DNA of 64,000 bases, from the NCBI GenBank assembly GCA_028714495.1, contig JAQTMH010000001.1, positions 179,814 through 243,813 on the forward strand. Reading direction: 5' to 3'. The first letter of the stretch is position 1; every line of letters begins with the position of its first letter. The position numbers and the translations under genes are program-made. Under the pieces are notes generated by a model. That model made no database searches. It had not been told where the DNA came from and saw nothing but the letters and a program-made list of their open reading frames with translations. Positions 14,246 to 64,000 of the stretch are shown one piece after another. The stretch is from Patescibacteria group bacterium (GTDB taxonomy: Bacteria; Patescibacteriota; Patescibacteriia; JAHIZJ01).

Positions 14246-14738
14246 GGTACTAGATAAACTCATTTGATCCTAAACAATAAATTTTATTACCTAATCTTAG
14301 CCAAAATACCCTGTTGATAACTTATTGGCTCTAGGCATTGACAATTTGTCCGACATCTTCTATGCTTGGGGGCTTAGAAGACAAAACAAAATCTTTACAA
14401 TATAATATTAATAGTATCCGTGAGGCGATGAACTGCAGCCTGAATCTGGTCGCTTTCCCCCTAGAGTTTATTAAACTTTTGGGGGCGGGCTGCGGGGAGC
14501 TAGTAGCGAAACCGACATGGCGGAGGAAGTCCTTCGATACCAAAAACTGCCGCCGCCTCACGCCCAAGAGGCGTTTTTTGTTGGCCTGACCTTATTACCG
14601 GTTGCCTTTAGTGAAATACCTAAAGACAGCCGGTTTGTAAGGTTACTAAGCTCTTTGACAACACGGTGTAAGCGGAACAAAACGCCGAAATACAGCGCGA
14701 AGTTGTTTTCGGGGTTACCACAAAAAGGAGGACCGGTC

Positions 14739-15452
14739 ATGAAGCGCCTGTTTGTATTCTGTTTGGTGTTGACGTCCGTTCTGCTGGCCACGACGGCGAG
14801 TGGAGCGGATCGAGCCTTGGTTGAACGTACGCTGGTCTGGGTGGAGGGCAATCCCATTCCGCCGGACAGCACGCTCAATTCGTCAGGCTATCAATGGGGT
14901 GTTGCTCAAGACTCCCTGATTACCGTCAACGGATTCGTTGCCCAGGTTGCGCGCAAGCCGCCGGTAAAGGCCAAGGTGTATGCTGACACGCCCTACGGCC
15001 GTATGTGCGAGCGGGCTTTTGCCGCGGCAGTTTCGGCACGGGACCAGGGCAAGAACGATTGGGAAGCCGCTCAGGCTGGCGCGGCGGTCATGGAGAACGA
15101 ACGCAGCTTAGTCCGCTCAGCCAGTGTGATCGAGGGTGGATGGGAAGTCGAGTACACCAACGGCGAATCCGAATCATTCGAGCTGGGTCCGCCCGAGAAC
15201 AGAGGATCGCAAACGCCCCAAGAGAAGGCGGCGTTCTACCAGGAAGTTACCGACCAGGGCAAAATGATTGTGCTCGCATGGAATGGGGAGTGCAGATGGT
15301 TTCTGACACCGGCCAGCAGGGTGCTGTGGAACGAGCAGATTCTACGAGTATGGGACAACGAGCCGAACCCGCCTGGCCCTATGCCGCCACAGTTGGTGAG
15401 CCTGTTCTGTGATCCTACGCCCCTCAACCGCGAGAGCCACAAGGAGGAGTAA
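14739..15452 (+). CDS. secreted hypothetical protein (G+C-rich island)
   Basis: aaaaaggagga RBS; signal peptide MKRLFVFCLVLTSVLLATTASGA; track ORF starts earlier at 14517 but signal peptide and RBS favour 14739. Confidence 0.5.
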   Translation: MKRLFVFCLVLTSVLLATTASGADRALVERTLVWVEGNPIPPDSTLNSSGYQWGVAQDSLITVNGFVAQVARKPPVKAKVYADTPYGRMCERAFAAAVSARDQGKNDWEAAQAGAAVMENERSLVRSASVIEGGWEVEYTNGESESFELGPPENRGSQTPQEKAAFYQEVTDQGKMIVLAWNGECRWFLTPASRVLWNEQILRVWDNEPNPPGPMPPQLVSLFCDPTPLNRESHKEE

Positions 15453-22140: not shown

Positions 22141-22318
22141 TTAGGACTTACGCGTTTGAGACAAGTTCGAGGAAAAATGCGAGGATTTTGCGAGGCGTAG
22201 TCAAACTACGACGAGCAAGGACGCAGCATTTTGACGAAGAAATTGGCCAAAGCCGCTTACTGACCCGGCTTCGCCGGGTCAGTAAGCGGCAAGCGCGTAA
22301 GTCCTAATAATCACGAAG
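22141..22318. mobile_element. MITE-like element with 13-14 bp terminal inverted repeats, copy 1
   Basis: ttaggacttacgcg ... cgcgtaagtcctaa termini; internal hairpins cgtagtcaaactacg and gcttactgacccggcttcgccgggtcagtaagc; second copy at 51253-51425. Confidence 0.6.
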
Positions 22319-31532: not shown

Positions 31533-32390
31533 TTATTTAAGCTCTTTCAGAAACGGGGTTAAGTCAACTTTTTCGGTTGGTCGTGAAACTAGGGTTTGAT
31601 TGGCCAGCGCCTTGAAATGACTTTCAAAAGTCGGGCGCGCTTCTTGGAAAAAAATACCGATAGGCAGGCGCGCGGTTTCGCCGGCCTTTTGATAAGCCGC
31701 CTGCCGGTTATTTGTCGGCCAGTTTTTCGAGTCCAGCTTGTATATTTTTGACCGGTATTCGTCGCGGATATTTTTAGCGTCGTAAAAAATCACACACGGC
31801 TGTAATAGCTCGACTACCGAGAAGCCTTTGTGGGTAAGGGCGCGTTTGTAAATTTCTTTCAAACTGGCCGTATCATCGGCGAAACCGCGCGCTACAAAAG
31901 TGGCTCCGGCTGTCAGCGCGATTTGCGGTCCATTGAGCGGCTGGTCAATTGAACCGACCAGGGCGGTTTTGGTTTTATCACCCAGTCGCGTTGTCGGCGA
32001 GGTTTGGCCAGTAGTTAAGCTATAGCGCTCGTTATTGTGGATAATGAGAGTCATGTTGACATTGCGACGGCAAGCGTGCAAAAAATGATTTCCACCTTCG
32101 CCATAGCCTCCGCCGTCTCCGGATAAAGCTACTACCGTCAAATCGTTATTGGCTAACTTAACCGCGGTCGCCACCGGAATGGTCCGGCCGTGAAGGCTGT
32201 GAAAACCGTAAAGGCGGTAATTATTCGCGCCGTTGCCATTGCAGCCAATATCAAATGTCATCACAACCTGATGGGGTTCCAAGCCCAGCTCGGCAAAGGC
32301 TTGGGTTAAAGCCGCGTAGGATCCATAGTTGCCACAAGCCGGGCACCAGGTCGGTTTATTATTTGTTTGAAAATCTTTTGCTTGAGCCAT
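31533..32390 (-). CDS. korB: 2-oxoacid:ferredoxin oxidoreductase beta subunit (TPP-binding)
   Basis: TWCPACGNYGSYAAL...GCNGNGANNYRLYGFHSLHGR...ALSGDGGGYGEGGNHF. Confidence 0.85.
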   Translation of the reverse strand: MAQAKDFQTNNKPTWCPACGNYGSYAALTQAFAELGLEPHQVVMTFDIGCNGNGANNYRLYGFHSLHGRTIPVATAVKLANNDLTVVALSGDGGGYGEGGNHFLHACRRNVNMTLIIHNNERYSLTTGQTSPTTRLGDKTKTALVGSIDQPLNGPQIALTAGATFVARGFADDTASLKEIYKRALTHKGFSVVELLQPCVIFYDAKNIRDEYRSKIYKLDSKNWPTNNRQAAYQKAGETARLPIGIFFQEARPTFESHFKALANQTLVSRPTEKVDLTPFLKELK

Positions 32391-32392
32391 AT

Positions 32393-34141
32393 TTAACCTT
32401 TTGAAGTGATTAAGCGCTTGACTTGTGCGACAATTTCATCAGGGTAAAATTGAGCGCCGTTATATTTTGAAATTCGGTCAGTAACTTTTATCCCAGTCTG
32501 TCCGCGCAAAATTTCCGCGAATTGACCGGTAAAATTATTCTCAATCGCCACTATCCGGCGTTGCCCTTGTAAAGCTTTTTTCATGGTTGATTCGCTCATT
32601 GGCCAGGGCGCCGTGATATGCAAATAATTCACCTGAGGCAAATCCTTCATCGCCTCTAGCACCGGACCTTTTGTTGAACCCCAGCCGAGAAGTGTTAATC
32701 GGGCCTTTTTCGGGCCAAAAAGCTTTGGTTTCGGCAGTTCAGCAAGCAGACGACTAAGCTTTCTAAATCGTTTTTCGGCTTGTTCAGCCACTACTTTGGC
32801 GGAAAAACCCTCAATCGAATAGCCAAACTCATCATGCTCGTCGCTGTTTGCCAGATGAATTCCGCCGCGACAGCCTGGAATAGCTCTGGGTGAAATGCCC
32901 GTCTTGGTATTGAGATAGCGTTTGTATCCCTTAATCCCGGCTAAGTCCTTTTCCGTCAAAATCTCGCCGCGTTCGATTTTAAAATTATTCGCCGGTACGG
33001 CTATCGACTGGTGGCCTTCTAAAATATATTTATCAAGGAGAATGAACACCGGAATCTGGTATTTCTCGGCGAGATTGAAGGCCTGTCCGGTCAATTCATA
33101 GGCTTCGGCCGCGTCGCCAGGCGCCAAAATTACCCGGATGAATTCCCCGTGGCCGGCTTTGGTGAGATAGGCCAGATCACCCTGGGCGGTCCAGGTCGGC
33201 AAACCCGTGGCTGGACCTGGCCGCTGGCCTTCAACTATGACCAGAGGCGTTTCAGTCATCGCGGCCAGGGCTAATCCTTCGGTCATCAGCGCGAAGCCGC
33301 CGCCTGACGTGGCTGTCATGGAACGGACGCCGGCATAGGCAGCGCCGATCGCCATGTGAATGGCTGAAATCTCGTCCTCCGGCTGTATCACAAACATGCC
33401 GGATTTTTCTGCCCAGTTAATTAAGTCATGAAGTATGGGCGAGGCCGGAGTCATTGGGTAGGAGGCCAGAAATTTACAGCCGGCTGAAATTGCTCCCAGC
33501 GCCACCATGTCGCTCGCGGTCACCAGTATTTTATCTGCTGGCCGGTTTTTAACCGGACTTAGGGTAAATGGGAATTTCCCAGGCTCAAGATTTTTCCGGG
33601 CATAGTCAAAGCCGGCCTGGACTGCCTTTTGGTTCATGACCACGACTTCGCTGCCTTTATCCCTGAAAACTTCGGCAATCGTCTGCCGGACAATAGCCAG
33701 GTCATATTTCAGAAGCGCCACAGTCGCTCCGATTGCCAGCATATTCGCGGCCAAAGGCGGTATCCCAGCCTCGTCGCCTAATTTTTTCAAAGGCAGCGGA
33801 TAAGCTTTTATCCCGTCAAATCCCTTCCGGCCCGGTTTAAAAGTGTCGCTGTCATAGAGGATGACCCCGCCCGATACCACATCAGGCTGGCAGTAGTCAA
33901 AAGCCTCCTGGGTCAGGGCGATTAAAAGCTGAGTTGACCGGTAGATCGCGGTCACCGGCTTGTTTGATATGCTTAAGCGATAAGTCACCAGGCCGCCGCG
34001 GATCCGCGAGGGGTACTCGGAACTGTCAAACGTAAAAAGTCCGCCCCGGCTGCACGCCTTGGCAAAAATTAAACCGGCTACCTGTTGGCCAGCGCCGGCA
34101 ACACCTCCGATTTTCCAGGTTAGTACTTCCGTTTTTGTCAT
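32393..34141 (-). CDS. korA: 2-oxoacid:ferredoxin oxidoreductase alpha subunit with N-terminal gamma domain
   Basis: gamma-type start TWKIGGVAGAGQQVAGLIFAKA...; alpha core ...MTATSGGGFALMTEGLALAAMTETPLVIV. Confidence 0.85.
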   Translation of the reverse strand: MTKTEVLTWKIGGVAGAGQQVAGLIFAKACSRGGLFTFDSSEYPSRIRGGLVTYRLSISNKPVTAIYRSTQLLIALTQEAFDYCQPDVVSGGVILYDSDTFKPGRKGFDGIKAYPLPLKKLGDEAGIPPLAANMLAIGATVALLKYDLAIVRQTIAEVFRDKGSEVVVMNQKAVQAGFDYARKNLEPGKFPFTLSPVKNRPADKILVTASDMVALGAISAGCKFLASYPMTPASPILHDLINWAEKSGMFVIQPEDEISAIHMAIGAAYAGVRSMTATSGGGFALMTEGLALAAMTETPLVIVEGQRPGPATGLPTWTAQGDLAYLTKAGHGEFIRVILAPGDAAEAYELTGQAFNLAEKYQIPVFILLDKYILEGHQSIAVPANNFKIERGEILTEKDLAGIKGYKRYLNTKTGISPRAIPGCRGGIHLANSDEHDEFGYSIEGFSAKVVAEQAEKRFRKLSRLLAELPKPKLFGPKKARLTLLGWGSTKGPVLEAMKDLPQVNYLHITAPWPMSESTMKKALQGQRRIVAIENNFTGQFAEILRGQTGIKVTDRISKYNGAQFYPDEIVAQVKRLITSKG

Positions 34142-49791: not shown

Positions 49792-49972
49792 ATTTTAAGC
49801 CTTTATTAATAATGTTTGACAAATTAAAAAAATCCTGGCATTACAGGATTTTTTGGCTACTGGCAGCATCCTAGCACAACTCTAAAATGCTGTCAATGGT
49901 GTTTTACGACACCTTAAAATGACTCACTATTTTCAGTAATTTTTAGGGTGATCTTTTGTATCCTAATTTATC

Positions 49973-50164
49973 TTAAGGCTTGAGCGAAATCGCCTGATAC
50001 GGGCAACTGTCTGCCGCGGCCTGGCAGTCACAACCAGCCTCTTCGCAAGTTCCTTTGGCGATTACTTGTGATTTGCCGCTATCATCCAGGGCGAAGACGT
50101 TCGGGCAAAGAGCAACGCAAGTACCGCAGCCCTGGCACTTTTCTTTATCAACAGTTGGTTTCAT
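49973..50164 (-). CDS. 4Fe-4S ferredoxin
   Basis: CQGCGTCVALCP ... CEEAGCDCQAAADSCP. Confidence 0.8.
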   Translation of the reverse strand: MKPTVDKEKCQGCGTCVALCPNVFALDDSGKSQVIAKGTCEEAGCDCQAAADSCPYQAISLKP

Positions 50165-50182
50165 TTTTTAGGATTTTTATTA

Positions 50183-50764
50183 TTAATTTTTTATCTTTCT
50201 AAGATCAGCACCGAGGCTGGCTCGAGTTACCTTTCGTCCAAGCTTTAAGCGGAGATACTCCCCGATTAAGAAACCTACCGGAACCAAAACCACATTACCG
50301 ATAAGCTGAGGTTTCAGGAAAGGCAGGCCCATGTAGTAGCAATAAAGAAGCCCATTCAAGCTTTTTTCATACCAAGGGGTAATCAGCCAGACTCCGAAAT
50401 TGGTATAGAGGTAGAAGAACAGGGAAAACGCCAAACCAGAGCCCAAACCCGCAAGAACAATTTTCTTGTTCAGTCCCATGAGCCTCAAACCCAGCCCCAA
50501 GCCACCTCCAATCAGATAGGCTGACCAGGTAAAAACGAAGATACTCGTGTTTCCGATGGCCATGTCCGAGCCTACCATTATTCCCAGTGGCACCGCGAAG
50601 GCATAAATTCCGCCCAGAAAAAAACCGGCGACTAGGGACAAGGTCGTGACCAGCTCAACATTCGGCGCGATGTGAAAAACCGTCCGACTACAAATACCAA
50701 TTATGATTAATCCAACGGCTAGAACCGCCTTGCGTCCGAGATAGGACAATATTTTTTCTCTCAT
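50183..50764 (-). CDS. ECF-transporter S-component-like membrane protein (candidate cobalamin uptake)
   Basis: about 6 TM helices, about 190 aa; downstream of cobalamin riboswitch and DUF4430-like gene. Confidence 0.45.
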   Translation of the reverse strand: MREKILSYLGRKAVLAVGLIIIGICSRTVFHIAPNVELVTTLSLVAGFFLGGIYAFAVPLGIMVGSDMAIGNTSIFVFTWSAYLIGGGLGLGLRLMGLNKKIVLAGLGSGLAFSLFFYLYTNFGVWLITPWYEKSLNGLLYCYYMGLPFLKPQLIGNVVLVPVGFLIGEYLRLKLGRKVTRASLGADLRKIKN

Positions 50765-50776
50765 GCTTTTTAAGGT

Positions 50777-51232
50777 TTAGAAGATGCTCTCTTGAAAACG
50801 AAATTCAATTTTGTCGCCGGCCTGAACTAACTGCTGATCAGCTCCGACCTGGGCTGACTCTCCATTGACATACAAAATCCAATACTTGTTATTTGTGCCA
50901 TTTTTCTGGCCGTTGATGCTTTCGATCAATACACCGGTGCTGTAGGATTTGGTTTCGTAGGCGAAAGATTTAAGCTTTGCCGCTCGTTCCAGAGTTTGAA
51001 GCGCGGTTTGGCCAGGCACCGGAGAGATGTTTTGATTGGTGATGTCATTGCCGTCATCGATAACCAGCTGAACATAATAACCCTGAGTTTCCGCTCCAGC
51101 TACCTTGCCTCGATCTTGAGGCTTTAGAGCGGCTAGTTCTGGTTGGGGTAGAGCTGACATGCTGTACATTAGAACCCCAGACACCAGGGCTGAAACGACT
51201 AACACTAACATTGATAATTGTGATTTTTTCAT
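50777..51232 (-). CDS. DUF4430-like secreted protein (B12-uptake-associated family)
   Basis: signal/TM N-terminus; YYVQLVIDDGN...WILYVNGESAQVGADQQLVQAGDKIEFRF pattern. Confidence 0.55.
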   Translation of the reverse strand: MKKSQLSMLVLVVSALVSGVLMYSMSALPQPELAALKPQDRGKVAGAETQGYYVQLVIDDGNDITNQNISPVPGQTALQTLERAAKLKSFAYETKSYSTGVLIESINGQKNGTNNKYWILYVNGESAQVGADQQLVQAGDKIEFRFQESIF

Positions 51233-51252
51233 ATTAGTTTTCTCTTAATTGT

Positions 51253-51425
51253 TAGGATAGGACTTACGCGTTTGAGCCAAGTTCAAGGCAAAATGCGAGG
51301 ATTGGGCGAAGCCGTAGTGGAACTACGGTGAGTCCAACCGCAGCATTTTAACGCAGAAATTGGCCAAAGCCGATTGCGGGCGGGCTCTGCCCGCTCGAAA
51401 ATCGGCAAACGCGTAATGTTCTAAA
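51253..51425. mobile_element. MITE-like TIR element, copy 2, inserted between the riboswitch and its gene
   Basis: taggacttacgcgtttgagccaagttcaagg...cgcgtaatgttctaa; collinear with copy 1 at 22141-22318, with different (compensatory) internal hairpins cgtagtggaactacg and gcgggcgggctctgcccgc. Confidence 0.6.
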
Positions 51426-51439
51426 TAAAAATCCCGAAA

Positions 51440-51630
51440 CCTTCGGGATGGGCCATCTTTTCGACCGAAGATTGGCAATATTTAATAGGGTATCCTGACT
51501 TATGGAGGAATTGCTCGTTGCGCCTTCCCACCCAGCCCATCACGATAGGCTGGACAGTGGCTTTTCACAACTTGCTTCTCCACTTACAGTGGCGGGACCG
51601 CGCTGGATTTTCACCAGCTTCCCCTTATAT
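51440..51630 (-). promoter_or_regulatory. cobalamin riboswitch
   Basis: minus-strand reading ggaagctggtgaaaatccagcgcggtcccgccactgtaagtggagaagc...aagtcaggataccc; diagnostic gguGAAAAUCC / CGGUCCCGCCACUGU core and B12-box-like AAGTCAGGA. Confidence 0.75.
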
Positions 51631-51785
51631 GTCTAATTGTTAATAAACTGCGACTTGACCTGTTGTTTTTTAATTCTAGTCTAAGCGTATTATGATGTCA
51701 AATTAGAATTCAAAATTCTAAATGTTAAATCATTGTTTCCGCCTCTCGACCCTGCTCTAGGCGGCTTCCTTCATTTTTAATTCTC

Positions 51786-52319
51786 TTAATAATCTATCCC
51801 GGGCTGGGCCAGAATACCCTTTCGAAACGGGTGCTTGATTTCTTTCATTTCGGTAACCAGGTCAGCCATTTTAATCACTCTGGGGTGGGCGCGGCGGCCG
51901 GTCAGGACTAAAGTCAACGAGTTGGGTTTATGTTTGATGAGATCGATAACTTTATTGAGCGGGATAAGCTTGCCAGCGACTGCGCCGTTTATTTCATCGA
52001 GTATTAATACATCGCACCGCTTAAGCCAATGCCTGGCCTCGCGGAAAGCCGCCCGAGCGGCCTTTTGATGCGCTGACAACGGCTGAGTGTCCTTTTGGAT
52101 CCCGACATAACCTCGACCCAGGGCCCTGATAATAAATCTTGGTTTCAGGCGCTGGGCAATTTTCATCTCTCCAGACTCTTTGGCGGATTTTACGAACTGC
52201 ACCATGGCCACCTTTTTATTATAGGCAGCCGCGCGCAGGGCTAAACCCAGAGCCGCGGTGGTTTTTCCCTTGCCCTGGCCGGTGTAAACGATTGTAAGCC
52301 CCCCGGGTTTTTTGGCCAT
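51786..52319 (-). CDS. cobO: cob(I)alamin adenosyltransferase (CobO/BtuR type)
   Basis: LTIVYTGQGKGKTTAALGLALRAAAYNKKVAMVQF...VLILDEINGA; internal Met start preferred. Confidence 0.85.
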   Translation of the reverse strand: MAKKPGGLTIVYTGQGKGKTTAALGLALRAAAYNKKVAMVQFVKSAKESGEMKIAQRLKPRFIIRALGRGYVGIQKDTQPLSAHQKAARAAFREARHWLKRCDVLILDEINGAVAGKLIPLNKVIDLIKHKPNSLTLVLTGRRAHPRVIKMADLVTEMKEIKHPFRKGILAQPGIDY

Positions 52320-52324
52320 AGCAT

Positions 52325-54613
52325 CTATGAAATACTGCAAGCTGAAAAGCCGCAGCCGGGACAGCTCATGCAGCCTTCTTTGATTTCAAGACGTGAGCCG
52401 CATTCTGGGCACTTATCCTTATCCACCATCTCACCCAAGGTCACCTCTTGTTTGATCGAACGGGTGCCGACAGAATCATCCTCCTTTTTCTTTTCCTCGG
52501 CGCCAATATTCAGCACCTGGGTTTCGCGGCTGCGATCGCGGTAAATAGTCACCCCCTTGCAACCAAGCTTGTAGGCTAAGAGGTAGACTTTTTCAACGTC
52601 ATCGATCGTGGCGTTGTGCGGAAAATTCACCGTCTTGGATACGGCATTGTCAGTATATTTCTGAAAAGCCGCCTGCATTTTAATATGGTCTTCGGGAGTG
52701 ATGTCATGAGCCGTTACGAAAACCTTCCGGACTTTTTCCGGTATTTCGGTGAATGACTGAATTGTGCCTTTTTCGGCGATTTTCCGCATCAATTCGTCGC
52801 TGTAAAAACCCTCGTCTTTCGCCACCCTTTCAAAATAGGGATTAACTTCGATCAGAGTATCGCCTGAATCGAGGATATTTTTCCGGACATAGGATATGGC
52901 AAATAACGGTTCGATGCCGGAAGAACATCCGGCGATGATGGAAATGGTGCCGGTGGGCGCGATGGTAGTCCGGGTGGAATTGCGGATTTTCTTGCCTTTT
53001 TTATCAGAGGCGTAAATGCTTTGGGTAAAGCTCGGAAAGGCGCCCCGAACATCCGCTAATTCTTCTGACATGGTCCGGGCTTCCCGGTTGACAAACTGCA
53101 TTATTTTTTCGCCCAGCTTCAAAGCCTCGGACGAGTTATAAGGCACCTCAAGTTGAACCAAAAGGTCGGCAAAGCCCATTATACCCAGGCCGATTTTCCG
53201 GTTCTTTTCCACCATTTCTTCAATCTGGGACAAGGGGAAACGGTTCATGTCAATTACGTTATCCAGAAAATGGGTCGCCGTGCGGACCGTGCGCCTGAGC
53301 GCGTCCCAATCAATTTCTTTCTTATCCGTTACTATCTTCGCCAAGTTAATTGAGCCAAGATTGCATGATTCAAAAGGCAGAAGCGGCTGCTCACCGCAGG
53401 GATTCGTTGACTCAATCTCGCCGATGGCCGGCGTTGGATTATGCCGGTTCATCTGGTCAATGAAGATTATTCCGGGATCGCCGTTTTTCCAGGCCATCGT
53501 AGTCATCAAATCAAAAACCTTGCTGGCTGAAATCTTTTTTGAAACTAATTTATTGCGGGGATTGATCAGTTCATAATCGCGGTCTTTCTCGACCGCTTTC
53601 ATAAATTCCTCGGTCACGGCCACTGAAATATTGAAATTATTCAGTTCCTGATTATTTTCCTTGCAGGTGATAAATTCGAAAATGTCCGGGTGATCAACTC
53701 TAATAATGCCCATGTTGGCTCCCCGCCTGGTACCGCCCTGTTTGACCGCTTCCGTGGCCGCGTTAAAAACCCGCATGAAGGAAATCGGGCCCGAGGCTAC
53801 CCCACCGGTTGATTTTACGATATCGCCCTTGGGTCGAAGCCGCGTAAAAGAAAAACCCGTGCCGCCGCCGCTTTGGTGGATCAAGGCCGTGTTTTTTATT
53901 GCTTCGAAAATGCTCGACATGTCATCGTCGACCGGCAGGACAAAACAGCCGGCCAATTGCTGGAGATCGCGGCCGGCGTTCATCAACGTCGGCGAATTCG
54001 GCAAAAATTCAAAGTTGCTCATCACCCGATAAAATTCCTTGGCCGTATCCTCAATATTCACGTCCTGGTGGTAGAGCGTTTTGTAGAGATTGTCGGCGTA
54101 AGCAATGTTATTGGCAACACGCTTAAACATTTCTTCGGGCGATTCCGTAATCTTGCCCTGTTCGTCCTTGCTCAAATACCTCTTTTGCAAAACCACCATG
54201 GCGTTGGGCGTGGATTTCACCTTGACCTGGTATTCCTGCAGCATTTTGCGGGCTTCGCGGATTTCCTTGTGCTTCTGACGGTAAATGATGTACGCTTTGG
54301 CCACTTTAAATAGGCTGCTGCGAACCAATATTTCCTCAACAATATCCTGCACCCCCTCGACTGCCGGAATCGCCCCAGCCGGCAATCGTTCAACTAAAAT
54401 GGTTACCGCTTCATCAGCCAGCCTGCGAGCCAAGGATTTATTCAGCTCATTGACCGAGATCATCGCTTTTTGGATGGCCAGGGCTATTTTATTATGGTCA
54501 AAGGGGACAACCTGGCCGTCACGCTTGCGAATTTCCTTCGGCATTTGCTTAAATCTTTTACTCAGAAGCCGGGTGGCGAAGTTTGTGGGTTGAGAAGTAG
54601 CTGTTTCTTTCAT
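52325..54613 (-). CDS. nrdJ: class II (adenosylcobalamin-dependent) ribonucleotide reductase with ATP-cone and C-terminal zinc ribbon
   Basis: ATP-cone IRKRDGQVVPFDHNKIALAIQKA; catalytic core NPCGEQPL, TIAPTGTISI; C-terminal CPECGS...CPGCGFSAC. Confidence 0.9.
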   Translation of the reverse strand: MKETATSQPTNFATRLLSKRFKQMPKEIRKRDGQVVPFDHNKIALAIQKAMISVNELNKSLARRLADEAVTILVERLPAGAIPAVEGVQDIVEEILVRSSLFKVAKAYIIYRQKHKEIREARKMLQEYQVKVKSTPNAMVVLQKRYLSKDEQGKITESPEEMFKRVANNIAYADNLYKTLYHQDVNIEDTAKEFYRVMSNFEFLPNSPTLMNAGRDLQQLAGCFVLPVDDDMSSIFEAIKNTALIHQSGGGTGFSFTRLRPKGDIVKSTGGVASGPISFMRVFNAATEAVKQGGTRRGANMGIIRVDHPDIFEFITCKENNQELNNFNISVAVTEEFMKAVEKDRDYELINPRNKLVSKKISASKVFDLMTTMAWKNGDPGIIFIDQMNRHNPTPAIGEIESTNPCGEQPLLPFESCNLGSINLAKIVTDKKEIDWDALRRTVRTATHFLDNVIDMNRFPLSQIEEMVEKNRKIGLGIMGFADLLVQLEVPYNSSEALKLGEKIMQFVNREARTMSEELADVRGAFPSFTQSIYASDKKGKKIRNSTRTTIAPTGTISIIAGCSSGIEPLFAISYVRKNILDSGDTLIEVNPYFERVAKDEGFYSDELMRKIAEKGTIQSFTEIPEKVRKVFVTAHDITPEDHIKMQAAFQKYTDNAVSKTVNFPHNATIDDVEKVYLLAYKLGCKGVTIYRDRSRETQVLNIGAEEKKKEDDSVGTRSIKQEVTLGEMVDKDKCPECGSRLEIKEGCMSCPGCGFSACSIS

Positions 54614-54621
54614 ATATTTAG

Positions 54622-55077
54622 TTATTTATCGGCTTTTTTTAATTTATCAATCTCCGAATCAAAAGTCTGCAGATCAGGGAAGGATTTATAAACCGAGGCG
54701 AATCTTAAATAGGCGACCGGATCCAGTTCTTTCAGCTTATCAATCACTATTTGGCCGATCTTTTGACTCGAAATTTGGCCGCCGCCGATTTTCTGGATCT
54801 CAATCTCAATCTGGGTAACCAGTTTTTGAATGTCCTCTTCGCTGAAAGGCCGCTTCTCGAGAGCCTTGCGAATGCCAGTCTCGAGCTTGACCCGCTTGTA
54901 AGCTTCGCGATTGCCGTCCTTCTTTATCACCTGGACGTCTAGGAGCACGATCCGCTCGTGGGTGGTGAAGCGAAAACGGCAGCTTAAACACTCCCGCCGG
55001 CGCCTGACCGTCATCTCGGCCGGAAAGACCCGGGAATCAACTACCTTAGTTTCAGCCTGACAGATGGGACACTGCAT
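54622..55077 (-). CDS. nrdR: transcriptional repressor NrdR
   Basis: MQCPICQAETKVVDSR...RRRRECLSCRFRFTTHERI zinc ribbon + ATP-cone. Confidence 0.9.
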   Translation of the reverse strand: MQCPICQAETKVVDSRVFPAEMTVRRRRECLSCRFRFTTHERIVLLDVQVIKKDGNREAYKRVKLETGIRKALEKRPFSEEDIQKLVTQIEIEIQKIGGGQISSQKIGQIVIDKLKELDPVAYLRFASVYKSFPDLQTFDSEIDKLKKADK

Positions 55078-55390
55078 AAGGAATTAGATCCCCGATTAAA
55101 TCGGGGACAAGATTAAAAATGTAAAAATTAATAAATAATAAGGAAAATTCGGGACTTAATTGAAGAGCAAAAAAAATTAAGCGGTTCTTCTGCCAATTTC
55201 ACCCTGCCTCCCACATCTCGTGCTGTGTTTATCAGTATAGCACAATTGTTCAGCCAGTGAAAAAAACAGTTAGCTTTATTTTTGGCTTATTTCAGGCCAG
55301 TAAACAAACGATGTGTGTCGGAAAACAAAATGGTGTGGATAACTTGATTGCTACTAGAGCGGAAAGCTGGATTTTCTTCAACTGGGCAAT

Positions 55391-55660
55391 TCAGCGTTCA
55401 CCCACAATCTCCTTTAAGAGACATTTTCCGCCGGAGGTATGCTTTATTTCAATTTGGGCGTTATTGGCAATTGTGTTTTTGGCAAGCATTTTCAAATTAA
55501 AACGTAAATTGGCCGGAGTTATCTCCTCACCGTGATCCTTTACCTCACCCAAATCGATCACCAGCTTGGTGATTTTCTTAAGTTTCTTGGTTTTGGCTGT
55601 ATTCATGGCCGCTCCAAGAATATCCTGAGCCGCGTAGAGATCGTGCATAATATTTATCAA
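55391..55660 (-). CDS. hypothetical small protein
   Basis: 89-aa ORF; no family recognised. Confidence 0.3.
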   Translation of the reverse strand: MINIMHDLYAAQDILGAAMNTAKTKKLKKITKLVIDLGEVKDHGEEITPANLRFNLKMLAKNTIANNAQIEIKHTSGGKCLLKEIVGER

Positions 55661-59468: not shown

Positions 59469-60719
59469 TCAATGGGTAGCGCAAGTCATGCAGGGATCAT
59501 AAGCCCGAATCAGTTTTTTAATGCTGGCGTGGCTGGCTGAATCATTGGTCTTGCCTTTTAAGAAAATCTTCAAATCAGCTTCCAGATTTGCCAGCATCTG
59601 GACAGTCGGGGTAATGATATTGCACTGACGGATAATTCCGTTTTTGTCGATTTCATAATAGTGGTAGAGCGTGCCGCGCGGGGCTTCAACCGCGCCCACC
59701 CCTTGGCCGGCTTTGAGTTTGTAGGCCTTGGCCGGCTGGGTCAATTCGCGCCTGGATAGGGGCTTTAAAAGCTTTTGAACTTCTTCAAGCGAGTGCATTA
59801 TCTCAATCAGCTGAGCGTAAATATTGTAGAAGTTGTTATAAATCGGCCGCGGGGGCAGGTATTTCAAGATTGATTTGGCCTTTGGATTCAGATTCTTTTC
59901 ATTCAAATGCAGTCTGGCCAGCGCGCCAACAAAATAACTCTTAGTTTTCCAAAAAGCTCGTTTCGACATTTCATATGGCCGCTGGATTTCCGTGACATCG
60001 TGTTCAAACTTACCGACTGGGATTTTTAAACCCTGGCTGGAAACGATCTGGTCGCCTTGATAAAAAGTGTATTTATGGCTATCCGTCAGAGCGTAAAATT
60101 CAGTCGGCCGGTTAAATTCGGGAAATTTTACTTTCCGATATACCTCTACCAAAGACCTGGCTTGATTGATTACCCGGGGAATGTCTTGAAGGATCTTTTT
60201 TATCTCGGCCTGAGTGGGAAGTTTTGTAAAGCCTCCAACTTTTGTCCTGAGCGGATGAATGCTCCGGCCGCCGAGCGTGGCAATCAGCCGGTTTCCAAAA
60301 TCACGGATTTTTAAGGCGTTAACCGTAGCTTCAGGAAAGCGCTTGCCCAGATCAAAGGCGTGCTTAAGGCCGAAATAATCACCCAAGGCCATAAAATAAG
60401 CGTGGAGGGCGTGACTTTGAATTGTCTGGCCCAATTCCATCACCTCGCGCAAAATAATATTCTGTGGAGAGAGCGTGATGCCCAGGGCGTTCTCCAGGGC
60501 TTTCAGCGAACAAAGGTTGTGCACCACCGGGCAAACTCCGCAAATCCTGGCGGTAATGAGCGGCGCCTCTTCGTAAGAGCGGCCAACTAAAATCGCCTCA
60601 ATCAAGCGGGCGCCTTCGTGAGTTTTTATCTTGGCTGATTTTATATCGCCGTTTTCAAGATCCGCTTCCAGACCGCCGTGGCCTTCGATTTTCGCGATGT
60701 GTTTTATGGTAATTTTCAT
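59469..60719 (-). CDS. NiFe hydrogenase large (catalytic) subunit, group 3-type
   Basis: N-terminal RICGVCPVVH and C-terminal DPCMTCATH metal-binding motifs. Confidence 0.9.
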   Translation of the reverse strand: MKITIKHIAKIEGHGGLEADLENGDIKSAKIKTHEGARLIEAILVGRSYEEAPLITARICGVCPVVHNLCSLKALENALGITLSPQNIILREVMELGQTIQSHALHAYFMALGDYFGLKHAFDLGKRFPEATVNALKIRDFGNRLIATLGGRSIHPLRTKVGGFTKLPTQAEIKKILQDIPRVINQARSLVEVYRKVKFPEFNRPTEFYALTDSHKYTFYQGDQIVSSQGLKIPVGKFEHDVTEIQRPYEMSKRAFWKTKSYFVGALARLHLNEKNLNPKAKSILKYLPPRPIYNNFYNIYAQLIEIMHSLEEVQKLLKPLSRRELTQPAKAYKLKAGQGVGAVEAPRGTLYHYYEIDKNGIIRQCNIITPTVQMLANLEADLKIFLKGKTNDSASHASIKKLIRAYDPCMTCATH

Positions 60720-60728
60720 CTGGCTTGG

Positions 60729-61505
60729 TTATTTAAATTTTTTCGCTTGGTTGGCTTGATCAATAAGCATTTTTTGGACGCCGTAAACCTGGAGGGCGTG
60801 CTTATATTCCTCTCGGCTGGCAAACGATTCAATCTGTCTTTGCAGGCTGTCTAAATTGGGCTCATTCACCGGCCCCCGACAACCCAGGCACTGCTGGCCA
60901 TGGGTGGTACAAATCGCCCGACAGCCGGCCCGAGTCACTGGCCCGAGGCAAATGATTTTTCGCTGCAAAAGACAGCCGGCTTGAACCAAGGGGCATTCAT
61001 AGCAAACCGGCTGGTCCGGAATCAGCGAGAGCTTACCGTCTTTTATGTCCAAAAGGTTTTGAGCGAATTCTTCATTATTTATCGGGCAGCCGGGAATTAT
61101 ATAATCGACTTTTACGTAATGCGCGATTGGAACTATTTCCGGATTTTCAATTTTATCAATCTGGGAATAGACGTATTTTAACTTTTCGTCCTTACTAACG
61201 TAGTTTTTTATTGCCTGGACGCAACCAATATGCGCGCAGTTGCCCAGGGCGATTAAAAACCCCGATTTATCCCGCATTTCTTTGAGCCGCGCCACGTCAT
61301 CGGCGGTAATGGGCGAGCCCTCGACTATGCCAATATCGTAGTGGGGCCTAGCCGGCAAATCTTCGACCAGGCTGAACTCACCTAAATCGTAATGCTTCAA
61401 TATTTCGAGCAGCCTCTCGCCCAAATCCAAAATGGCGAATTGGCAGCCCTCGCAGCAAGTCAGGCTGATTATCCCGATAACAGGTTTTTTGGGAAAGTTT
61501 GGCAT
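60729..61505 (-). CDS. NiFe hydrogenase small subunit
   Basis: ISLTCCEGCQ proximal-cluster motif; further Cys clusters CYECP, CLGPVTRAGC. Confidence 0.85.
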   Translation of the reverse strand: MPNFPKKPVIGIISLTCCEGCQFAILDLGERLLEILKHYDLGEFSLVEDLPARPHYDIGIVEGSPITADDVARLKEMRDKSGFLIALGNCAHIGCVQAIKNYVSKDEKLKYVYSQIDKIENPEIVPIAHYVKVDYIIPGCPINNEEFAQNLLDIKDGKLSLIPDQPVCYECPLVQAGCLLQRKIICLGPVTRAGCRAICTTHGQQCLGCRGPVNEPNLDSLQRQIESFASREEYKHALQVYGVQKMLIDQANQAKKFK

Positions 61506-61506
61506 A

Positions 61507-62238
61507 TTAAATCGTCAGGTTGGCTAATTTTATCGCTTCGCCGGTGTAACGGCTTAGGTTTTTTACCTGTTTCTGAGTCAAAATCTCGCAGGCGAAATTC
61601 CAATGGAAAGAAACCCAGTCTTTGATCTTAGGTTCCTGAATAAAAGTTTTTTCGTCGAATGAGCGCTGGACCGTTTTTAGTCGGGGCGAGCTTAAACGCA
61701 ACCTTCCCTCAGCCATTTCCAGAAAGCGGCTTTTTACAATTAAAGAATCTTTTTGGATCTCCTGAATCTGGCCCCAGCTCACCCGGCAATTATCCATGGT
61801 TTCGAGAGTGTGGGCAAGCGTTGGGTGGCCGGTATGAACAAAAACGTTAAAAACATGAAAAGTGTGATGCGGTTTGGCGCCTAAAGGGATTTTTCCGAGC
61901 AAATATTCCAGCGAGCGGGGACTAATCCTTTTTTTCAGATTCAAGCCTTCGGTCAAATGACGGTAAAGACCTTTCATGGCGGTTTTTTCCAAAAGATCAT
62001 TGCCGATCCAGTAAGCTTCAACCACTTTTTCATCAAATGCGTCCTCAATTAAATTACTATTGGCAATAAACCTCAAATAAGGCCAAAGGTTTTTGAAATT
62101 TACCAGAATATCCTTCAAGCCCTGATCAACCGTGTGGGTGATGCCATAGTCAAAAAGCGTCCGGTCGGCAGACGGTCCGCAATACGCCAGCCGATTGGGC
62201 ATGAAAGCGTAGGTTGTGCACGAAAGAATGCCTGACAT
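61507..62238 (-). CDS. hypothetical protein within hydrogenase cluster
   Basis: 243 aa between small subunit and EamA gene; start/stop tightly abutting neighbours. Confidence 0.4.
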   Translation of the reverse strand: MSGILSCTTYAFMPNRLAYCGPSADRTLFDYGITHTVDQGLKDILVNFKNLWPYLRFIANSNLIEDAFDEKVVEAYWIGNDLLEKTAMKGLYRHLTEGLNLKKRISPRSLEYLLGKIPLGAKPHHTFHVFNVFVHTGHPTLAHTLETMDNCRVSWGQIQEIQKDSLIVKSRFLEMAEGRLRLSSPRLKTVQRSFDEKTFIQEPKIKDWVSFHWNFACEILTQKQVKNLSRYTGEAIKLANLTI

Positions 62239-62241
62239 TGG

Positions 62242-63132
62242 TTAAACCCTTGCCGATTTAATTTGTTTTTGCCTGTTTACAAGGAAGATCAACGCCAGAC
62301 TGGCTAAAACCACAAAATTTCCAGCAGTCTGCGGCCACGAAGGAATTTGCCGGTCTATAACCAGCTGGCAAAATACCGTAATCGGAAAGCCCAAGGCCAA
62401 AATCGAAGTTGCCACAGCGACCGGGATGTACCGAAGGCCGCTATACCAAGTCACCACATAGCCAAAGAGAAAAAGCGACGTGACAATGGTCCACTGGATT
62501 TGCGGCCAAGTCAGATGAGCCAAAGCGGGCAGTTGGTTTGTCATTGTCCAAAATCCGAAAATAATAATCAGGCCGAAAAACATCCTACCCCATGAAGCCA
62601 GGAGAGGAGAAACGCTCCGCAAAACTTTTTTCGCGATAATCTGCTCGCCAGCCCATAGTAGCGTGGCCAGGAGTATCAAACCATCGCCCAGATGCAGCCC
62701 TTGCGGCGCTATTTTAAACATCAGAACCAGACCCACTACTAAGCTGGCCAATCCGAAATATGTCCAGCGGTTAATTTTCTCTTTTAGAAATACCAGGGCC
62801 AATATTGCCACCCAGACAAACATCGTTTTATGAATAAATGCGCCCTGGGCTGCGCTGGTCAAGCTTAAACCCTTGAAAAACAGCAGAAACGGCACGCCGC
62901 CACCCACCAGGCCGAGCAGCAGCAAGCCCAGCCATTGTTGTCTTCGTAATTTTTTTACTTCAGCAAATTTCTTCGTACCGGCAATTGCTAAAACAATAAA
63001 TAATACCACCAAGGCGTTTTTTAGGCCGGTAAAGATATAGGGGTTTGAAACGCTGACGCCGAACTTGTTGAAATAGACTGACAGGCCGGAAATCAGAGCC
63101 GTGGCCAGAATTAATTTGTAGCCTTTATTCAT
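62242..63132 (-). CDS. EamA/DMT-family transporter
   Basis: 10 TM helices in two 5-TM halves. Confidence 0.7.
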   Translation of the reverse strand: MNKGYKLILATALISGLSVYFNKFGVSVSNPYIFTGLKNALVVLFIVLAIAGTKKFAEVKKLRRQQWLGLLLLGLVGGGVPFLLFFKGLSLTSAAQGAFIHKTMFVWVAILALVFLKEKINRWTYFGLASLVVGLVLMFKIAPQGLHLGDGLILLATLLWAGEQIIAKKVLRSVSPLLASWGRMFFGLIIIFGFWTMTNQLPALAHLTWPQIQWTIVTSLFLFGYVVTWYSGLRYIPVAVATSILALGFPITVFCQLVIDRQIPSWPQTAGNFVVLASLALIFLVNRQKQIKSARV

Positions 63133-63319
63133 TTTTAAAAAGTTTTAATATTTTATTCGCTTCGGCCGAGCTAATTTTTTTTATCGCCAGATCGGCATTG
63201 ACCAACACCCAGTCTCCGGGCTTGGCTTTTGGGACTAGAGAGATGTCGATCGTACCAGTGCCAACCTTGGCTTTGTTATCAGCGACCGAGATAATCTTCT
63301 TGGGTACAGTCAGGCACAT
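63125..63319 (-). CDS. hypC: hydrogenase maturation factor HypC
   Basis: MCLTVPKKIISV...; HypC N-terminal MC(L/I)(A/G/T)(I/V)P. Confidence 0.8.
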   Translation of the reverse strand: MCLTVPKKIISVADNKAKVGTGTIDISLVPKAKPGDWVLVNADLAIKKISSAEANKILKLFKNE

Positions 63320-63362
63320 TTTATATCCAATTAGCTAATCAACCAATTAACTAATTAACCAA

Positions 63363-64000
63363 CTAAATCGCTCCCGGAATATCCTTTATCTTATCATAAG
63401 AAAATACCGGGCCATCTTTACAGACATAGAATGAGCCGATCGCGCAATGCTGGCAAACACCGACCGCGCAATCCATCCGGCGTTCAAAAGAAAGGTAAAT
63501 ATCCGTATCGGGAATGCCCAATTTCTTCAAACGCTCCAGCGTGAATCGGTACATGATCGGCGGACCGCAGGCTAAGACACCAACCTTCTCCATTATTTTT
63601 ACCTTATCAAAAAGATTGGTGATCAGGCCAACCTGATGCGGCCACGCGGCCGAAGGCTTGGACGCTATCAGATATAAGTCAATTTTCTTCCGCCAGTTAT
63701 CAAATTCATTGGCAAAAAGCAAATCCCTTTCGCTGGTAACGCCGAAAAATACCTGCAGCTTTTGTTTGGCGCTGGGTTTTTTCAGGTAATCAAGAATCAC
63801 GGTCCGCATGGTGACAAAGCCGCAGCCGCCGCCGATCAGAAGCAAATTCCTGTTGGCCAATTTGTTCATCGGAAAACCATGGCCATAAGGTCCGCGTATT
63901 TGAAGCCGGTCGCCGATTTTCAGTTGGTGGATCCTTTTGGTGACGGCACCGGCCTGACGCACGCAGATTTCTAAGGAACCAGTTTCCAGCGAACTTGAGC
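63363..64000 (-). CDS. hydrogenase gamma subunit, FAD/NAD(P)-binding with 2Fe-2S (PyrK-like); N-terminus beyond window edge
   Basis: LLLIGGGCGFVTMRTVI...CQHCAIGSFYVCKDGPVF; reading frame continues past position 64000. Confidence 0.75.
   Translation of the reverse strand, partial: SSSLETGSLEICVRQAGAVTKRIHQLKIGDRLQIRGPYGHGFPMNKLANRNLLLIGGGCGFVTMRTVILDYLKKPSAKQKLQVFFGVTSERDLLFANEFDNWRKKIDLYLIASKPSAAWPHQVGLITNLFDKVKIMEKVGVLACGPPIMYRFTLERLKKLGIPDTDIYLSFERRMDCAVGVCQHCAIGSFYVCKDGPVFSYDKIKDIPGAI

Follow-up and report, generated by a model that had tools for sequence, protein, structure and literature searches.

A probable vitamin B12 salvage-and-use locus in a Patescibacteria genome and its likeness to the Lactobacillus cbrT cluster

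The locus described here raises the question of whether an otherwise uncharacterised membrane protein of 193 residues, encoded beside a B12-dependent ribonucleotide reductase, takes part in the uptake of vitamin B12. The original prediction, made for a 64-kb stretch of Patescibacteria DNA (64,000 nucleotides, hereafter the window), had placed nrdR, nrdJ, cobO, a riboswitch, a DUF4430 gene and the gene of the membrane protein in one locus, and profile and covariance-model matches confirm the presence of each (Table 1). The locus very likely represents a vitamin B12 salvage-and-use module composed of two adjacent minus-strand operons, the Patescibacteria counterpart of the nrdJ-cbrS-cbrT-pduO cluster of Lactobacillus. 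For comparison, we used a set of 80 loci that encode DUF6580, the family of the membrane protein, mostly from Patescibacteria and including one from a DPANN archaeon (L012).

Organisation of the two operons

All features of the locus at 49973..55077 lie on the minus strand. The use operon contains nrdR, nrdJ and cobO in tight packing, whereas the putative uptake operon consists of its own promoter, a cobalamin riboswitch with a terminator/antiterminator platform, the DUF4430, DUF6580 and ferredoxin genes, and a terminator.

Table 1. Features of the locus, in the direction of transcription
Feature	Position	Strand	Evidence or remark
Promoter-like site upstream of nrdR, extended -10 (TGcTATACT)	55234..55263	-	Consensus scan; putative function
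nrdR, ATP/dATP-sensing repressor of ribonucleotide reductase genes	54622..55077	-	TIGR00244, 169.3 bits (cut-off 124.65)
nrdJ, class II adenosylcobalamin-dependent ribonucleotide reductase	52325..54613	-	NF006417, 1045.1 bits (cut-off 961)
cobO/cobA-type ATP:cob(I)alamin adenosyltransferase	51786..52340	-	PF02572, 192.7 bits (cut-off 25.7)
Promoter-like site of uptake operon, TTGACA-17-TAGAAT	51673..51701	-	Consensus match 11/12
Cobalamin riboswitch aptamer, long form, with P6 extension and GCCACUG box	51468..51659	-	RF00174, 88.5 bits
Expression platform: antiterminator AAUCUUCGG/CCGAAGGUU versus hairpin and intrinsic terminator AUCCCGAAGGUUUCGGGAU, then U-run	51421..51482	-	Terminator scan, folding
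Inverted-repeat element, 153 bp, terminal repeats TTACGCGTTTG / CAAACGCGTAA	51264..51416	-	In leader, terminator to DUF4430 start
Membrane-anchored DUF4430 protein, CbrS-like	50777..51232	-	PF14478, 60.8 bits (gathering score 23.8)
DUF6580 six-helix membrane protein, 193 aa, CbrT-like ECF S-component	50183..50764	-	PF20221, 98.9 bits
Single-cluster 4Fe-4S ferredoxin, 63 aa, third gene of uptake operon	49973..50164	-	PF13370, 53.3 bits
Terminator-like hairpin, end of uptake operon	49827..49854	-	11-bp stem and T-run

In the use operon, the nrdR stop is followed after 8 nt by the nrdJ start, and cobO begins either at a TTG codon, which gives a 16-nt overlap with the nrdJ stop, or at an ATG (52319) located 5 nt past it; cobO is therefore translationally coupled to nrdJ. 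NrdR is composed of a zinc ribbon (PF22811) and an ATP-cone (PF03477). NrdJ carries an N-terminal ATP-cone, the RNR barrel and a C-terminal Cys-rich zinc ribbon, the last of these visible in the translation as a CPECG...CPGCG cysteine cluster, and it also matches TIGR02504 (753.2 bits; cut-off 399.95) and PF02867 (484 bits). CobO falls marginally below both NCBIfam equivalog cut-offs (TIGR00708, 164.2 versus 167.75; NF004637, 179.2 versus 185). NrdR would regulate the nrdR-nrdJ-cobO operon. Canonical tandem 16-bp NrdR boxes (acaCwAtATaTwGtgt) were not found near nrdR or nrdJ with up to 3 mismatches allowed, and there is only a conserved, partly palindromic CAC.A.AT.T.GG box past the -10 element. 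The TGnTATACT block and this box, in the form CAC(G/A)A(G/A)AT.T(G/T)GG, are conserved in L001, L002 and L007.

The riboswitch lies 14 nt downstream of its promoter-like site, and the match to the Rfam model is full-length (positions 1-189; E 1.6e-20; gathering score 31.5). The antiterminator is predicted to fold at -10.6 kcal/mol while the 3' arm of the terminator has not yet been made, as opposed to -17 kcal/mol for the hairpin and terminator in the full sequence, and the predicted mutually exclusive pairing is also kept in L001 and L007. Plentiful cobalamin, in whichever form the riboswitch may sense, would bind the aptamer, such that the terminator replaces the antiterminator and transcription of the uptake genes stops. 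Feedback of this predicted kind, in which an RF00174 riboswitch acts on B12 uptake genes via premature transcription termination, is known from btuB and btuFCD operons; the cargo differs, being an S-component and a transcobalamin-like binder in the window, whereas those operons encode TonB-dependent receptors or type II ABC importers. The 153-bp element of the leader occurs a second time at 22148..22300, and L001 and L007 have only about 30 nt at the same site; it is a probable insertion rather than a functional component. The repeat element counts against the reading of the locus as a salvage-and-use module, as do the lack of a canonical NrdR box, the 50 related loci in which no riboswitch core motif was found and the restriction of the ferredoxin gene to the four closest relatives.

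The DUF4430 and DUF6580 proteins and their relatives

The family assignment of the DUF4430 protein was borne out by its Pfam match. Its translation begins with a hydrophobic helix. Mammalian transcobalamin, haptocorrin and intrinsic factor possess B12-binding beta domains with which the DUF4430 domain aligns at E values of 0.0017 to 0.18, and it aligns with almost nothing else in the PDB: apart from a bacterial DUF4430 structure, relatives up to E 0.6 are limited to the beta domains found in transcobalamin-1, transcobalamin-2 and intrinsic factor, the best E being 0.0017. A conserved (Y/F)W...NG segment is common to both groups; within it, W118 and N123 do not vary across 17 bacterial sequences. 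Unlike these mammalian proteins, the bacterial protein is composed of the beta domain alone on a membrane anchor, without the alpha/alpha-barrel half. Both halves are encoded in L014, as separate neighbouring genes (in the order riboswitch, DUF4430, alpha/alpha-toroid protein, DUF6580). With L. helveticus CbrS the window protein shares 30% identity (E 3e-8). We propose that it serves as an extracellular corrinoid-capture protein, which would be held at the surface by its N-terminal helix, bind the corrinoid through its transcobalamin-beta-like domain and hand it to the DUF6580 protein.

The DUF6580 protein, 98% identical to NCBI PHH01_00190, contains six transmembrane helices, and its structure superposes on solved S-components. 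BtuM and CbrT had been named as families against which to test it; it is in fact a member of DUF6580 and a remote relative of CbrT, and it is not a BtuM. Among 177,635 PDB sequences, the sole match of the DUF6580 family profile is CbrT (6fnp_A, PDB 6FNP; E 0.013), and profile-profile comparison of the two families by hhalign gives a probability of 95.3% (E 2e-8, 155 columns), the remoteness of the relation being evident in an identity of about 21% in the profile alignment. The motifs R-x6-PNV-x-VT and S(D/N) are common to both. Precomputed PF20221 matches occur on some CbrT homologues, and the window protein carries no reported match to PF12822, the Pfam family that covers CbrT. No other ECF-S family, and no non-corrinoid one among them, was matched at E ≤ 0.1. 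CbrT itself is an experimentally proven cobalamin/cobinamide S-component, encoded in the nrdJ-cbrS-cbrT-pduO cluster (PMC5997447). The original B12-uptake reading of the DUF6580 protein is thus supported by the lack of a non-corrinoid match, the CbrT relation and the matching Lactobacillus module, and we propose that the protein acts as a corrinoid translocator.

The CbrT locus of L. helveticus is ordered NrdJ, DUF4430, CbrT and PduO-type adenosyltransferase, and represents the same module as that of the window, alike in logic and gene order. Both uptake proteins have homologues there (E 3e-8 for DUF4430, which in L. helveticus is CbrS; hhalign 95.3% for the S-component), and both loci belong to organisms whose NrdJ makes them dependent on B12. 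The differences are as follows: (i) the S-component belongs to DUF6580 in the window and to PF12822 in Lactobacillus; (ii) the adenosyltransferase is CobO-type versus PduO-type, the latter occurring in 15 other CPR loci; (iii) the reductase is of the NrdJ_Z type with an ATP-cone, as opposed to the monomeric type (PF17975); and (iv) the window adds NrdR, the cobalamin riboswitch and the ferredoxin, no riboswitch having been detected at the L. helveticus cbrT locus. The locus is a distant relative within a known type of system, and its mechanism is not new.

In other bacteria, B12 riboswitches also control importers of dimethylbenzimidazole (predicted for CblT) and of cobalt (CbiM), and the membrane protein could in principle carry one of these instead. 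We consider this very improbable: no cob/cbi genes, whether for assembly or for remodelling, lie in the 64-kb window, which as far as it extends agrees with the original premise that the genome cannot make B12; NrdJ and adenosyltransferases were the only B12-linked genes found in the related loci, which were examined by tblastn and Pfam and are not fully annotated; the DUF4430 partner is homologous to binders of whole cobalamin; and CbrT, the sole sequence-level relative with a solved structure, binds cobalamin and cobinamide.

Energisation and the role of the ferredoxin

The locus had been described as a self-contained unit. The term is overstated, since neither an energising ECF module nor a corrinoid reductase was found, bar the candidate ferredoxin. 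Neither an ECF ATPase nor a T component was found in the 64-kb window, nor within 6 kb in 78 of the 80 loci. The DUF6580 protein would thus carry the corrinoid across the membrane either via an ECF ATPase module encoded elsewhere or alone, as BtuM does. The latter alternative, a minimal two-protein system in which a solitary DUF6580 transporter has the DUF4430 protein as its only partner, rivals our reading on energisation only, and is a serious possibility although not one that we favour. SMC is the only ABC ATPase in the window, just two of the 80 loci contain an ABC ATPase within 6 kb (one of them on the opposite strand), and BtuM tops the Foldseek list for the DUF6580 protein. Group II S-components, however, are normally encoded apart from the shared ECF module; its absence from the locus therefore says little. 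Moreover, while BtuM and some BioY proteins function without the module (PMC6072759), CbrT, the closest sequence relative, requires it, and CbrT on its own failed to sustain the growth of E. coli (PMC5997447).

The similarity to BtuM is one of fold only. The BtuM protein of Thiobacillus denitrificans is a B12 S-component that works alone (PMC6072759). It has no detectable sequence homology to DUF6580, and BtuM chains (8c7p, 8ovv) are not among the matches of the DUF6580 profile in PDB sequences up to E 10. BtuM is proteobacterial and its gene is co-localised with btuB, whereas the DUF6580 gene occurs with that of DUF4430. In BtuM, a conserved cysteine of loop 3, Cys80, ligates cobalt axially and is indispensable to both binding and decyanation (PMC6072759). 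An alignment of 30 DUF6580 sequences contains no Cys or His among its invariant or nearly invariant columns, and both Cys residues of the window protein sit in variable ones. This lack of a conserved counterpart of Cys80 led us to reject a BtuM identity, and it also argues against solitary transport.

The ferredoxin gene lies within the stretch covered by the original prediction, which did not name it. Its start is located 18 nt from the DUF6580 stop, with no promoter or terminator detected in the gap, and the gene is therefore under the riboswitch. With low confidence, we suggest that it donates electrons for cobalamin reduction: CobO would adenosylate cob(I)alamin, the co-transcribed ferredoxin would supply the reducing electrons, and the resulting adenosylcobalamin would serve NrdJ in the formation of deoxyribonucleotides. 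It may equally well be a passenger with a general redox role and no link to B12, the uptake operon proper being composed of the DUF4430 and DUF6580 genes. Consistent with a passenger, a ferredoxin gene follows that of DUF6580 only in the four closest of the 80 loci (L001, L002, L003 and L007), and the window also has genes for two enzymes that rely on ferredoxin-type carriers, a 2-oxoacid:ferredoxin oxidoreductase and a NiFe hydrogenase. The uninterrupted 18-nt gap speaks against it, as does the requirement of CobA-type adenosyltransferases for an outside one-electron donor in the formation of cob(I)alamin, a part played by flavodoxin in Salmonella. In addition, NrdR and NrdJ are encoded upstream in all four ferredoxin loci; a CobO-type adenosyltransferase is present in three, and tblastn found no CobO in L007.

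A broader proposal would combine these points: DUF6580 and a membrane-anchored transcobalamin-beta-like binder, which occur in Patescibacteria and in a DPANN archaeon (L012), would form a minimal, ATPase-independent B12 uptake system. Through it, ultra-small episymbiotic prokaryotes would as a standard acquire the cofactor of their sole deoxyribonucleotide source, and in the present lineage the riboswitch-controlled ferredoxin would be a dedicated reductase partner of CobO. We regard it as tentative and rather doubtful.

Conservation of the module and its significance

Among the 80 loci, DUF4430 accompanies DUF6580 in 72; 37 have NrdJ in the vicinity, and 36 have an adenosyltransferase, which is CobO-type in 21 and PduO-type in 15, a case of non-orthologous replacement. 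The core motif of the cobalamin riboswitch occurs on the same strand in 30 of the loci and was not found in the other 50. Its 33 matches all fall on the gene strand, compared to about 0.2 expected by our own estimate. Covariation supports these matches (one pair being GC in 12, UA in 8 and CG in 7), and Rfam supports those in L005, L009, L014, L016, L017, L038 and L041, of which three lie under the gathering score. Numerous short cobalamin riboswitches of these bacteria score too low for the Rfam thresholds, and several proteins with no Pfam match are under their control.

The DUF6580 family is large, with 4484 clusters at 50% identity by profile search at E ≤ 0.001 (2604 at E ≤ 1e-10). NCBI labels it only as a "putative transport protein", and neither a mention of it nor an experiment on any of its members was found in the literature searched. 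The link to CbrT gives this large uncharacterised family a specific and testable function, likely B12 transport. The only ribonucleotide reductase that these loci show is of class II, which suggests that external B12 is needed for DNA precursors in many Patescibacteria, as well as in at least one DPANN archaeon. Such a need would tie their metabolism in a concrete way to hosts or neighbours, and could guide attempts at cultivation.

Organization of the module

The whole module lies on the minus strand, from 55263 to 49827, and its features are listed in the table. Profile and Rfam matches confirmed the presence of every component named in the original prediction, i.e., NrdR, NrdJ, CobO, a cobalamin riboswitch, a DUF4430 protein and a 193-aa membrane protein; a ferredoxin gene within the same stretch was absent from that list. 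NrdJ carries an ATP-cone at its N-terminus and a CPECG...CPGCG cysteine cluster at its C-terminus. Since nrdR and nrdJ are only 8 nt apart, and cobO, depending on its start, shares 16 nt with nrdJ or begins 5 nt past it, the three genes were taken as a single transcription unit (the use operon). The region 5' of nrdR (55078..55290, minus strand) contains an extended -10 element, followed by a partly palindromic CAC(G/A)A(G/A)AT.T(G/T)GG box and eight consecutive T residues, all three of which are common to the closely related loci L001, L002 and L007. No canonical NrdR boxes were found near the operon; the upstream elements could represent a divergent NrdR site or a leader structure.

The uptake operon follows directly on the same strand. 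Folding of its leader indicated that an antiterminator (AAUCUUCGG/CCGAAGGUU) is the best fold (-10.6 kcal/mol) while the 3' arm of the terminator is untranscribed, and that in the full sequence it is outcompeted by a small hairpin plus the terminator (-17 kcal/mol). These competing pairings are also preserved in L001 (via a G-U wobble) and L007 (a perfect 8 bp), and the arrangement fits a predicted OFF switch that would act by transcription termination.

The window has about 170 nt, absent from its relatives, between the terminator and the start of DUF4430; these include a 153-bp element (51264..51416, minus strand) with terminal inverted repeats (TTACGCGTTTG/CAAACGCGTAA) of 11-15 bp, in the form (GGAC)TTACGCGTTTG ... 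CAAACGCGTAAGTCC. A second copy is located at 22148..22300; the two are about 75-80% identical, with compensatory changes in two internal hairpins. It occurs in none of 85 fetched loci, and we interpret it as a repeat element that was inserted here.

Elsewhere in the window (14412..14526, plus strand) there is a match to the c-di-GMP-II-GAG riboswitch (45.2 bits; gathering score, 40), which ends just inside the start of a Pfam-less ORF (14517..15452); a C25-peptidase-like protein of 942 aa is encoded next.

Features of the B12 module, nearby redox genes and related loci carrying a second riboswitch
Feature	Location	Strand	Support or remark
Extended -10 promoter-like site	upstream of nrdR	minus	kept in closest relatives
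NrdR	55077..54622	minus	TIGR00244, 169 bits
NrdJ	54613..52325	minus	NF006417 (B12-dependent reductase equivalog), 1045 bits, cut-off 961
CobO	52340..51786	minus	PF02572, 193 bits
Near-consensus promoter TTGACA-17-TAGAAT	51701..51673	minus	starts uptake operon
Cobalamin riboswitch, full-length	51659..51468	minus	88.5 bits, gathering score 31.5
Hairpin and U-run	51449..51421	minus	after riboswitch
DUF4430 protein, 151 aa	51232..50777	minus	
DUF6580 protein, 193 aa	50764..50183	minus	
4Fe-4S ferredoxin, single-cluster, 63 aa	50164..49973	minus	
Terminator-like hairpin	49854..49827	minus	end of uptake operon
Hydrogenase set and 2-oxoacid:ferredoxin oxidoreductase	59469..63962, 55391..55660 and 31533..34141		
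Second-riboswitch locus L005	6684-8663		
Second-riboswitch locus L019	6639-8468		
Second-riboswitch locus L030	6850-8163		
Second-riboswitch locus L042	3164-4066		
Second-riboswitch locus L053	6792-7952		
Second-riboswitch locus L055	6588-8171		
Second-riboswitch locus L071	6700-8439		

The DUF6580 and DUF4430 proteins

The organism belongs to the Patescibacteria (CPR), and its 193-aa membrane protein is 98% identical to NCBI PHH01_00190. The sole Pfam match of this protein is DUF6580 (98.9 bits). The non-corrinoid S-component families that would compete with the proposed B12-uptake role (QueT, FolT, RibU, ThiT and BioY) gave no Pfam or NCBIfam match, and the likeness to them is at the level of the fold only. 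An AlphaFold model built with 30 homologues is confident (pLDDT 90.2) and has six transmembrane helices; its top Foldseek match is BtuM, the solitary B12 S-component of Thiobacillus denitrificans, with bound cyanocobalamin (TM 0.63/0.68, weak E-value). The fold thus identifies the class of the protein, not its substrate; the sequence tells more.

Searched against all PDB sequences, the DUF6580 family profile matched one protein only, 6FNP chain A (E 0.013); this structure is the Lactobacillus delbrueckii vitamin B12 transporter, ECF-CbrT (PMC5997447). Profile-profile alignment against 18 CbrT homologues gave a probability of 95.3% (E 2e-8) over 155 columns; the motifs common to the two families include R-x6-PNV-x-VT (helix 1/loop 1) and S(D/N) (helix 3), and precomputed DUF6580 matches exist on some CbrT homologues. 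Membership in the BtuM family, whose defining residue is Cys80 (PMC6072759), was rejected, as sequence homology is absent and the DUF6580 family has no conserved counterpart of this residue. Together, the sole PDB match, the profile-profile result and the missing cysteine argue that the protein is CbrT-like, not BtuM-like, and the two CbrT comparisons uphold the uptake role that had been proposed for it. CbrT itself is said to have been predicted originally by Rodionov et al. in 2009.

In the DUF4430 protein, a hydrophobic helix is present at the N-terminus and the DUF4430 domain (60.8 bits) at the C-terminus. Its only PDB relatives at E <= 0.6 (best E, 0.0017) are the C-terminal beta domains of haptocorrin, transcobalamin and intrinsic factor, together with a small bacterial DUF4430 structure. 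A homologue search with this protein returned only itself, and its single-sequence AF2 model (pLDDT 51) was left out of the fold search. CbrT is encoded in an nrdJ-cbrS-cbrT-pduO cluster (PMC5997447), and the L. helveticus locus that we fetched codes, in order, for a class II reductase, a 136-aa DUF4430 protein, CbrT and a PduO-type adenosyltransferase. The DUF4430 proteins of L. helveticus and the window are 30% identical (E 3e-8). The window's two uptake genes are thus remote homologues of cbrS and cbrT and share their functional neighbourhood. Unlike the window, no riboswitch was found in the Lactobacillus locus.

Energisation and the ferredoxin

No ABC ATPase other than SMC was found in the 64-kb window, where a Pfam scan of the ORFs of 110 aa or more also revealed no EcfT, BtuCDF or cob/cbi genes; among 80 related loci, an ABC ATPase lies within 6 kb in only two. 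These results would fit an ECF module that is shared and encoded elsewhere, energising the DUF6580 protein as in Lactobacillus, and they would also fit solitary action in the style of BtuM; solitary CbrT is inactive in E. coli (PMC5997447).

The ferredoxin gene is under the riboswitch, but only the four closest relatives also have a ferredoxin after DUF6580. Given how CobA-type enzymes work, the protein may be the electron donor for the cob(I)alamin formation that serves CobO. It could just as well have a general redox role, since the window encodes the large and small subunits of a NiFe hydrogenase, with an FAD/NAD-binding subunit and a HypA-like protein, just upstream of the B12 module and, further from it, a two-subunit 2-oxoacid:ferredoxin oxidoreductase; these genes point to a ferredoxin-based redox metabolism.

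Related loci and their riboswitches

The comparison set comprised 80 fetched genomic loci encoding DUF6580 relatives, nearly all from Patescibacteria lineages, with one DPANN archaeon (L012) and one contig labelled Pirellulales (L038). In 72 of them, DUF6580 occurs together with a DUF4430 gene; in three of the other eight, the gene is at a contig edge or the contig is very short. NrdJ is encoded within 6 kb in 37 loci and an adenosyltransferase in 36 (21 of the CobO type and 15 of the unrelated PduO type), a non-orthologous replacement which ties the DUF4430-DUF6580 pair to B12. The archaeal locus (L012 2975-6558, an Iainarchaeum contig) contains an NrdJ-CobO-DUF4430-DUF6580 module, in which no riboswitch was found. 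Another archaeal-looking contig (L083) also bears the pair. In L014 (3803-6483), the riboswitch is followed by DUF4430, a 444-aa prenyltransferase-like alpha/alpha-toroid protein and DUF6580, such that the two halves of the transcobalamin architecture are separate neighbouring genes. In Gottesmanbacteria-type loci (L008, L009, L010, L016, L017, L023, L026 and L040), a conserved protein of 700-880 aa (e.g., L009 2957-5443) stands between the riboswitch and the DUF4430 and DUF6580 genes. It has no Pfam match in the two loci scanned (L009 and L017), and is possibly a third component of the uptake system.

With the window riboswitch as query, nhmmer convincingly matched only four close relatives, and Rfam at the gathering score detected three riboswitches in 12 loci. 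Because these yields were low, riboswitches were counted by a core-motif regular expression, checked by permissive Rfam runs and covariation. The strict motif gave 33 matches in 30 of the 80 loci, all on the gene strand, where about 0.2 would be expected by chance (our own estimate); 26 are upstream of the DUF4430-DUF6580 genes, and seven are just downstream, before Pfam-less proteins. Rfam scores are above the gathering score in L005, L009, L014 and L038 and just below it in L016, L017 and L041. Two of five re-tested matches (L008 and L010) had no Rfam match at E <= 0.1, so that the 30/80 figure rests partly on the motif and visible stem covariation. Most of these riboswitches are short, lacking the P6 extension, and many score under the Rfam gathering threshold. 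An alignment of 27 short riboswitches (L005-L071) exhibits strong covariation, with 9-11 double changes per pair in the P3 stem and one junction pair occurring as GC (12), UA (8) and CG (7). On the 3' side of the aptamer, these short riboswitches share a conserved TCCCGAGCAGGA box, which could be the regulatory loop or the region of ribosome binding.

Seven loci have a second cobalamin riboswitch, which is located just downstream of DUF6580 and precedes proteins of 300-660 aa. Five of these (L005, L019, L030, L042 and L055) were scanned and have no Pfam match above cut-off; only those of L055 and L071 are detectably related to each other. The genes are B12-regulated and carry no functional assignment.

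The literature searched contained no mention of DUF6580 and nothing relevant on cobalamin riboswitches, B12 transport or ECF uptake in Patescibacteria/CPR. In its essentials, the original interpretation of a unit for B12 salvage and use was right. A salvage-and-use cluster of this kind is already known, and the locus is its Patescibacteria form, with riboswitch feedback; it is a distant relative rather than a new mechanism. The locus supports corrinoid uptake as the probable role of the uncharacterised DUF6580 family, which comprises 4484 clusters at 50% identity.
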